A stretch of 64,000 bases of DNA from Escherichia coli (GTDB taxonomy: Bacteria > Pseudomonadota > Gammaproteobacteria > Enterobacterales > Enterobacteriaceae), in assembly GCF_024298765.1 (NCBI RefSeq), contig NZ_CP101210.1, one strand, 5' to 3'. Shown piece by piece: positions 9,001 through 12,000 of this stretch. Position 1 is the first letter of the stretch. Every line of letters starts with the position of its first letter. The position numbers were made by a program.

Positions 9001-12000
9001 GCACAGGGTAAAGAGGGGCACGGTTGCAACCACAACGGCGGCGATGCCGGAAGGAACATTTTGATGCTCGGCAACCGTCACCATGCCATTACCGACAGCC
9101 AGCAATAACAGGCCAATCACCGCGGCATTGAGCAGCGGACGTAGCGGGGGGAGTTTGTGTCCGCGCAGTAGCAAAAATGCCAGCAATAAAATACCGGCTG
9201 CCAGGAATCGAACGCCCGCCATCATTAACGGAGGCCAGCTTTCCACGCCAATCCGAATGACAAAATAGGTTGAGCCCCAAATGATATACAACGCAAACAG
9301 CGCGCCAAAAAGCGGTAACAACTGGCGGAAACGCATAATCCCTCACGGTGGAAATAAAAAGGTGGTTCATAGTAAACGTGAAAATCATTCTGCTGGCGAG
9401 AGATATAATTGCACTTGATTGTTAAAAAAATGTTGACCTGTGAAGCAAGTATCAGAGCTGCCGTTTTTGCTTCATACTTACACCCTTCAACAATAAAAAT
9501 GAGAGGGAATGCTTTTGGCCGGGAGTAGTTTACTGACGTTGCTCGATGATATCGCCACACTACTGGACGATATCTCCGTGATGGGCAAACTGGCGGCGAA
9601 GAAAACCGCCGGTGTATTAGGGGATGACTTATCGCTCAATGCGCAACAAGTTTCAGGCGTGCGGGCCAACCGGGAACTTCCCGTGGTCTGGGGCGTGGCG
9701 AAAGGATCGCTGATTAATAAAGTGATTCTGGTGCCGCTGGCGCTGATCATCAGTGCGTTTATCCCGTGGGCGATTACGCCTCTGTTGATGATTGGTGGCG
9801 CGTTTCTCTGCTTTGAAGGAGTAGAGAAAGTGCTGCATATGCTGGAGGCGCGTAAACATAAAGAAGATCCGGCGCAGAGCCAGCAGCGTCTGGAGAAGCT
9901 GGCGGCGCAGGATCCGCTGAAGTTTGAAAAGGACAAAATAAAAGGGGCGATTCGTACCGATTTTATATTGTCTGCCGAAATCGTCGCCATCACGCTGGGG
10001 ATTGTGGCCGAAGCGCCGTTGCTTAATCAGGTGCTGGTGCTTTCAGGCATCGCGCTGGTAGTGACCGTGGGCGTCTACGGTCTGGTAGGGGTTATCGTTA
10101 AGATTGATGACCTGGGGTATTGGCTGGCGGAAAAATCCAGCGCGCTGATGCAGGCATTAGGTAAAGGGTTATTGATCATTGCGCCCTGGTTGATGAAGGC
10201 GTTATCGATTGTCGGCACGCTGGCGATGTTCCTCGTCGGCGGCGGTATTGTGGTACATGGTATTGCGCCGCTGCATCACGCCATTGAACATTTCGCCGGG
10301 CAGCAAAGTGCAGTGGTGGCGATGATATTACCGACTGTTTTAAATCTGATTCTTGGATTTATCATCGGCGGCATCGTGGTGCTGGGAGTGAAAGCCGTAG
10401 CGAAAATGCGCGGTCAGGCACATTAATACTCGCACAGGCTATTATGCAAAATTCGCCATCTTCAACTAAGGTGAACAAGTTTCACTCGAAAAAAGGAGGC
10501 GAGTATGAGCTTTATGGTTAGTGAGGAAGTTACGGTTAAAGAGGGCGGCCCGCGGATGATTGTCACTGGATACTCCAGCGGTATGGTTGAGTGTCGTTGG
10601 TATGACGGTTACGGGGTCAAGCGGGAAGCTTTTCATGAAACCGAGCTTGTTCCGGGGGAGGGGAGTCGTTCTGCGGAAGAAGTTTGAAAGGGTATCATTA
10701 ACACCAGGCCGGATCACTTCCGGCCTGGTGTGCCAATGCCTGCAATGAATGATAGTCGCGTCTTATCATGCCACCATTATAAAATTATCGCTGTTTTGCG
10801 GTACGCTATCGCCAGGTTATGCCAGAATCATAAAAAAGCAGGTGGGGAGTCGTCAGGGTGCAGCACGAGACAAAAATGGAAAACCAGAGCTGGTTGAAAA
10901 AACTCGCACGCCGCCTGGGGCTTGGTCATATCGTTAATCTCTGCTTTATCGTGGTATTGCTTTTTTCCACCTTGCTGACCTGGCGTGAAGTGGTAGTGCT
11001 GGAAGATGCCTATATCTCCAGCCAGCGTAATCATCTGGAAAACGTAGCCAACGCGCTCGATAAGCATTTGCAGTATAACGTCGACAAACTGATCTTTTTG
11101 CGTAATGGCATGTGCGAGGCTCTCGTAGCGCCACTGGATTTCACCTCTCTGCGTGATGCTGTAACCGAGTTCGAACAGCATCGCGACGAGCACGCCTGGC
11201 AAATCGAACTCAACCGACGACGCACCCTGCCAGTCAATGGCGTGTCGGATGCATTAGTCAGCGAGGGGAATCTCCTGTCTCGCGAAAATGAAAGCCTCGA
11301 CAATGAAATTACCGCTGCACTGGAAGTTGGTTACTTGCTGCGACTGGCACACAACTCCTCGTCGATGGTAGAACAGGCGATGTATGTCTCGCGTGCCGGA
11401 TTTTACGTTTCGACGCAGCCGACCTTGTTTACGCGCAATGTTCCAACGCGTTATTACGGCTATGTCACCCAACCCTGGTTTATTGGCCATTCACAACGAG
11501 AAAATCGTCACCGCGCGGTACGCTGGTTCACTTCGCAACCGGAACACGCCAGCAATACTGAACCGCAGGTTACCGTCAGTGTTCCGGTAGACAGTAATAA
11601 CTACTGGTATGGCGTGCTGGGGATGAGTATTCCCGTGCGTACTATGCAGCAATTTTTAAGAAACGCCATCGATAAAAACCTCGATGGTGAGTATCAGCTC
11701 TATGACAGTAAGCTGAGATTTTTGACCTCTTCCAATCCTGACCATCCAACAGGGAATATTTTTGATCCTCGTGAACTGGCCTTGCTGGCGTAGGCAATGG
11801 AACATGACACGCGGGGCGGCATTCGTATGGACAGTCGCTATGTTAGCTGGGAACGTCTGGACCATTTCGACGGTGTGCTGGTGCGCGTCCATACGTTAAG
11901 CGAAGGCGTGCGCGGCGATTTCGGCAGTATCAGCATTGCATTAACCCTGCTGTGGGCGCTCTTTACCACCATGTTACTCATCTCCTGGTATGTGATTCGC

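Follow-up and report, generated by a model that had tools for sequence, protein, structure and literature searches.

DgcQ (YedQ) is one of the twelve diguanylate cyclases of Escherichia coli, and ties an arginine signal to c-di-GMP, to cellulose control in some strains, and to phage N4 sensitivity. In K-12, arginine-dependent sensitisation to phage N4 reportedly requires DgcQ, whose Salmonella homologue, STM1987, senses arginine (PMC8669472). An interrupted form of its gene has been described: Richter et al. (2014, EMBO Mol Med, PMC4287979) reported, and confirmed by resequencing, that yedQ nt 934 is changed in strains 55989, HUSEC041 and LB226692, turning CAG (Q) into TAG. Their Supplementary Table S1 quotes the sequence as TAGGCAATG; translational restart at a nearby ATG was proposed and favoured, and readthrough was mentioned as a possibility (PMC4287979). 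A passage in a later paper (PMC11327459), citing Povolotsky & Hengge (2016, J Bacteriol 198:111), places the stop at codon 312 and an AUG at codon 314 in at least six EAEC strains.

The nearest experimental counterparts are in Shigella. The dgcQ pseudogene of S. flexneri 2457T has a stop at codon 56 and a Met at codon 59; expressed from a plasmid, it yields two protein bands, one of them of full-length size, and raises c-di-GMP, as does the Shigella dgcE pseudogene (PMC11327459).

The 64,000-nucleotide stretch of E. coli DNA analysed here (the window) carries the amber allele of dgcQ. The allele is already published and routinely annotated; the finding is correct but ordinary, and implies no new mechanism. 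What can be added is modest: 1) a frequency of ~3.8% among complete genomes; 2) evidence for a single origin, including an intact relative one step away; 3) a recombination breakpoint inside the gene; and 4) the lack of a real ribosome-binding site at the proposed restart codon. Taken together, the material makes it probable that this is a natural single-base nonsense allele, C934T (Gln312 to amber), that arose once and is now present in several lineages by descent and homologous recombination, and in which regulated DgcQ signalling is lost, leaving at most a weak, unregulated remnant.

The interrupted gene

In the window dgcQ has yodC on one side and the convergent yedP on the other, a gene order shared with K-12 and other E. 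coli (according to the annotation of AR_452, K-12 and Jnd12). The coordinates of the gene and of the other features discussed below are collected in Table 1.

Table 1. Features of the window (positions count from its first letter)
Feature	Position	Strand	Remarks
dgcQ (yedQ)	10858..12552	+	565 codons, GTG start, single interruption; from ORFs and translation
dgcQ 5' reading frame	10858..11793	+	GTG start, 311 codons, then TAG; from ORF list
Amber TAG	11791..11793	+	codon 312; nt 934 C>T relative to K-12 CAG (Gln)
Candidate restart ATG (Met314 of the intact protein)	11797..11799	+	3 nt past the stop
dgcQ 3' reading frame	11797..12552	+	ATG start, 251 codons; from ORF list
Interval containing the recombination breakpoint within dgcQ	11371..11790		from alignment and mismatch maps
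~20.6-kb block nearly identical to O104:H4	11371..32000		~10 differences; from 1-kb bins against NZ_CP027394.1
Porin gene	3769..4827	-	
drpB (yedR)	5475..5756	+	in-frame TGA, codon 16, at 5520..5522
dsrA small RNA gene	13563..13649	+	
Remnant region between fliE and yedF	~26500..30700		
Segment missing from O104:H4	28988..29857		~870 bp
Flagellin gene	~36861..37910		349 aa

A preliminary description had two halves of dgcQ lying in one frame, parted only by a TAG, and its coordinates are borne out by the ORF list and by translation: both ORFs share a frame, the DNA around the stop reads ctg gcg TAG gca ATG gaa (the wider context of stop and ATG being TAGGCAATG), and codon 312 is the sole internal stop, besides the terminal TAA, when the whole gene is translated. 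Its statement that K-12 has Gln (CAG) at this place was also right. The MG1655 gene (b1956) has CAG (Gln312) at the amber position, and the reference protein, rather than ending at codon 312, runs on to 564 aa; the uninterrupted 564-codon frame is what the window gene lacks, by virtue of the TAG at codon 312. The two genes are colinear without indels; the 29 differences over their 1695 nt (98.3% nt identity) are 23 synonymous, 5 missense and 1 nonsense. The split in dgcQ is genuine: a C-to-T change has turned Gln312 into an amber codon.

With the Gln restored, Pfam places a CHASE7 domain at aa 41-227 (E=1.2e-94) and a GGDEF domain at aa 398-557 (E=1.7e-46), and hydropathy places TM1 at ~aa 20-42 and TM2 at ~aa 357-380. 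This is the layout expected of a dgcQ orthologue: CHASE7 between two TM segments and a C-terminal GGDEF domain with its GG[DE]EF and RxxD motifs. The active site GGEEF (aa 477-481, nt 12286-12300) and the inhibitory site, or I-site, RAQD (aa 468-471) are both intact. The stop falls in the periplasmic region, past the Pfam CHASE7 match and 45 residues ahead of TM2. The 5' frame covers TM1 and the greater part of the periplasmic sensor region, with the entire Pfam CHASE7 match inside it; the 3' frame begins with a 43-aa periplasmic stub and continues through TM2 and the complete GGDEF domain. Solved relatives of DgcQ, as found by sequence, cover the GGDEF domain only, with none for the sensor region around residue 312.

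Frequency and reality of the allele

A 61-nt probe with the T of the TAG at its centre finds a match of some kind in 5,309 of 5,426 complete E. coli genomes; since in 5,308 of those records the alignment spans 80% or more of the query, the exact matches to the TAG context (206 of the 5,426 genomes, ~3.8%) are full-length exact matches. A 301-nt probe returns the same top set. Among the carriers are the O104:H4 outbreak strains 2011C-3493, C227-11 and HUSEC2011, EAEC 55989, VR50, a strain named ST648, APEC O2-211 and O78:H4 APEC strains; by source they also include avian, pig, dog, poultry and water isolates. All carrier records whose annotation was examined have dgcQ labelled by PGAP as a pseudogene with an "internal stop", which agrees with the suggestion of the preliminary description that this is a natural allele. 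The exact 311-aa upstream product is encoded on at least 1000 public contigs, and so is the exact 251-aa downstream product, which appears, for example, as 'putative diguanylate cyclase YedQ [E. coli O104:H4 str. 2009EL-2050]'.

Might the strain nevertheless have CAG, and the TAG be a sequencing or assembly error? Beyond the general possibility that attends any single base, nothing speaks for it. The identical allele is present in 206 independently assembled complete genomes, the protein-level matches extend over at least 1000 contigs, resequencing by Richter et al. (2014, Suppl. Table S1, PMC4287979) confirmed the change in three strains, and the window itself equals strain Jnd12 over 25 kb save for one other base. 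The chance of such an error is negligible: identical complete genomes, contigs and published resequencing rule out a faulty base call.

Origin and spread

The window dgcQ was aligned with seven other amber alleles and with K-12. Over the 3' 1182 nt (nt 514 to nt 1695), the eight amber alleles show no variation at all. The first 513 nt, in contrast, come in two haplotypes, one comprising the window, AR_452, ST648 and APEC O2-211, the other VR50, O104:H4, a pig isolate and Z503. When the 3' 1182 nt with CAG restored are used as query, an exact match is found in two genomes (isolates from one Hungarian food-container source). Their dgcQ, at 2488..4182 in NZ_CM194531.1, is intact, and nt 934 is the sole position at which it departs from the O104:H4-type amber allele. 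Because the Hungarian intact allele differs at nt 934 only, the mutation amounts to a single C-to-T step on a known intact haplotype. (The Hungarian intact allele, that of isolate 44 for one, is either the ancestral form or a revertant.)

These alignments point to a single origin, followed by spread through descent and homologous recombination, as the simplest history. Multiple independent origins find no support, 8 of the 8 sampled amber alleles sharing an identical 3' 1182 nt. Because the 3' half is invariant in the eight alleles, the amber allele looks young, and its lack of decay is uninformative. A mutational hot spot was also considered as the source of the C-to-T change, dcm and vsr being 3 kb away, and was rejected: the wild-type context GCGCAGGCA reads GCAGG, not CCAGG, and is no canonical Dcm site.

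The window allele is a recombinant form, since it is identical to that of O104:H4 over nt 514-1695 and differs from it at 13 sites in nt 1-513. The wider comparison has the same shape. Left of 11370, the window is 1-2% diverged from O104:H4 and VR50; to the right of the breakpoint it is nearly identical, and the amber sits ~420 bp inside the left edge of the shared ~20-kb block. The block carries the amber part of dgcQ, yedP, dsrA, yodD, dsrB, rcsA and fliE-fliR. Divergence from O104:H4 returns at ~32-35 kb, and then again from ~39 kb.

At its left end the window has a much closer relative: positions 1-25000 differ from the avian strain Jnd12 (NZ_CP095820.1) only at 11118, G in place of A. The G is a synonymous change in dgcQ codon 87 (GAG in place of GAA), counts among the 13 sites at which the window gene departs from the O104:H4 allele, and is present in no complete E. 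coli genome of the collection. The source of the window is accordingly a near relative of the Jnd12 lineage that the collection does not include. (The flagellin gene of the window has a protein accession, WP_000079759.1, that is common to Jnd12 and O104:H4; the source strain is therefore probably of H4 type, and the amber dgcQ allele may travel together with this flagellar region.)

Other features in the window

Several further features of the window were noted in passing. The gene drpB (yedR), 6 kb upstream of dgcQ, has its own in-frame stop (...GKLAL*AFYTW...), which PGAP labels an 'internal stop' in Jnd12; 248 complete genomes match the 61-nt context of that stop exactly, and the drpB of O104:H4 is intact. 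The porin gene has diverged strongly from its O104:H4 counterpart, with 123 differences counted in the 4-5 kb bin; the counterpart is itself annotated as frameshifted. The small RNA gene dsrA, just past yedP, is intact (Rfam DsrA, 102.5 bits); relative to K-12 there is an indel in the spacer near 13430. Between fliE and yedF are emrE, ybcL, ybcM, fragments of IS5 and IS200/IS605 transposases and a gene for an SOS-response peptidase, the remnant of a prophage or of IS elements; the segment missing from O104:H4 (Table 1) is part of this stretch by position.

Consequences of the stop

What would such a gene make? Ribosomes starting at the GTG would reach the UAG within the periplasmic sensor region, and the main product is predicted to be a 311-aa membrane-anchored fragment, composed of TM1 and CHASE7, without a cyclase domain. 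The full-length, signal-coupled enzyme would be essentially lost, and the arginine coupling reported for K-12 DgcQ should be lost in amber strains along with it. The preliminary description had gone as far as this in stating that the sensor and TM part would be made without the GGDEF domain unless the amber were suppressed. The stop does precede both TM2 and the GGDEF domain, and to that extent the statement stands; it overlooked a second route to a product, restart at ATG 11797, a route that the literature proposes for this very allele.

Suppression itself deserves consideration, because insertion of Gln at the UAG, by a near-cognate tRNA-Gln or by a supE-type tRNA, would give back the exact wild-type protein. 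A suppressor tRNA or a high level of natural readthrough might in this way provide near-normal amounts of full-length DgcQ. Readthrough by near-cognate tRNA-Gln, though it would put back the wild-type residue, probably amounts to no more than ~1%. The only tRNA genes of the window are those for Gly (GCC), Cys (GCA) and Leu (TAA); no tRNA gene with a CUA anticodon is found within the 64 kb, and a suppressor encoded in the window was discarded on that account. Elsewhere, the supE-type glnV (CUA) is found as an exact match in 155 genomes, and the 40 of the 155 that were listed all derive from K-12 in the laboratory and include no amber-dgcQ strain of this analysis. Programmed recoding or readthrough at a UAG would be expected to leave a conserved in-frame TAG, and there is none: the TAG context is confined to 206 of the 5,309 matching genomes, ~96% of genomes have a sense codon, and K-12 has CAG. 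No dedicated UAG-decoding machinery (pyl genes, for example) is known from E. coli. Richter et al. (2014, PMC4287979) did name readthrough as a possibility, and the Shigella dgcQ pseudogene does give a band of full-length size (PMC11327459); even so, near-normal production of full-length DgcQ from the window allele must be judged very unlikely.

Restart is the more substantial matter. The arrangement TAG GCA ATG puts a stop and a potential start within a few nucleotides of each other, as in termination-reinitiation pairs, and some of the terminating ribosomes would probably reinitiate at AUG314, the stop being followed by GCA ATG. The product would be a 251-aa TM2-GGDEF protein, its A- and I-sites intact, severed from the sensor. 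The signals that might assist its synthesis are poor. The 20 nt upstream of ATG 11797 pair with the anti-Shine-Dalgarno sequence of 16S rRNA at -3.2 kcal/mol, the median over 28 annotated starts being -6.2, and 34% of the positions inside dgcQ pair as well or better. Promoter-like sites for the 3' ORF match at chance level, with none near 11797. An internal promoter and a strong ribosome-binding site were both set aside on these grounds: promoter matches no better than chance, and weak Shine-Dalgarno pairing. On balance we lean towards the restart protein being made, and consider it doubtful that it gives physiologically relevant c-di-GMP. A fragment deprived of TM1 and the sensor may fail to dimerise, or may be unstable.

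Is dgcQ, then, a broken gene, or one that has been usefully split? The second alternative would have efficient reinitiation at AUG314 yield an active, sensor-independent TM2-GGDEF cyclase, with the allele kept and spread as an advantageous rewiring. Several observations are in keeping with it: 1) stop and start are 3 nt apart; 2) the A- and I-sites are intact; 3) none of the eight alleles examined has a second lesion; 4) genomes with the amber allele far outnumber those with its intact one-step relative (206 to 2); 5) the amber is found on two distinct 5' haplotypes; 6) the dgcQ and dgcE pseudogenes of Shigella still raise c-di-GMP (PMC11327459); and 7) restart was favoured by the first describers of the allele (Richter et al. 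2014, PMC4287979). Other observations speak against it. The Shine-Dalgarno pairing is weak, and restart in the window allele is a proposal. The absence of decay is uninformative when the 3' half is invariant, and the spread may be no more than hitch-hiking in the ~20-kb shared block with the fli genes. In one amber-carrying strain, E371 (NZ_CP095806.1, 2057420..2060452), the gene has suffered a second lesion, an ISVsa5 (IS4-like) insertion on top of the stop, which suggests that dgcQ is dispensable there. We regard an efficient and advantageous split as rather unlikely.

Speculation about selection can be pushed further. What is advantageous might be either a constitutive TM2-GGDEF protein made through AUG314 or the very loss of arginine-coupled DgcQ signalling (less of the c-di-GMP-dependent receptor glycan of phage N4, for instance), with recombination under positive selection taking the allele into several phylogroups. 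This would, if true, explain why the amber allele stands at 206 genomes and the intact relative at 2; as an account of the allele it is improbable. The reading preferred here remains that of a nonsense allele that arose once and has lost regulated signalling.

What follows for biofilm formation is another question. The preliminary description had presented the interruption as a plausible loss of function, linked through dgcQ to cellulose and biofilm regulation. That this is a nonsense allele is supported, but it does not allow a cellulose or Congo-red phenotype to be deduced. EAEC 55989 and HUSEC041 carry the amber allele yet stain strongly for cellulose, and the cellulose missing from the outbreak strain has been put down to a bcsE mutation rather than to yedQ. 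With cellulose still made by these two carriers, the phenotype of others is unpredictable from the allele. In a broader sense, a common natural allele that uncouples a sensor from its enzyme adds to the differences in biofilm signalling from strain to strain, the O104:H4 outbreak lineage included. A point of some value is whether cyclase alleles with a nonsense codon and a nearby AUG stay partly active, a question that the literature has already raised.

Comparison with known systems

It is useful to set the window allele beside its relatives, beginning with the most distant. Bacterial translational coupling by termination and reinitiation, for which there is the scanning model of Adhin and van Duin, also involves a stop and a start a few nucleotides apart in one mRNA. 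The arrangement in the window differs in being accidental, the outcome of a point mutation inside a gene, without an evolved Shine-Dalgarno sequence.

The 'degenerate' cyclase genes dgcQ, dgcE and dgcN of S. flexneri 2457T (PMC11327459) are closer: they too have a nonsense codon before an intact GGDEF domain, with a Met a few codons off. The stop in S. flexneri dgcQ is at codon 56, so its restart product, unlike that of the window allele, would retain nearly all of the sensor region together with TM2; and the data come from plasmid over-expression of Shigella genes.

With intact K-12 DgcQ (YedQ, b1956; CHASE7-TM-GGDEF) the window gene has in common its locus, gene order, domains and catalytic motifs. 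The difference is the frame broken at codon 312, by which sensor and cyclase could be joined in one polypeptide only through readthrough.

The closest system of all is the yedQ 934 allele of O104:H4 and 55989. It is the same as that of the window in base change, in codon, in its TAGGCAATG context and in all of the gene sequence from nt 514 onwards. The two part company in nt 1-513, where the window has another haplotype, differing from O104:H4 at 13 sites; P22L, R86C, I90V (Ile in O104:H4, Val in the window) and K115Q are among them.
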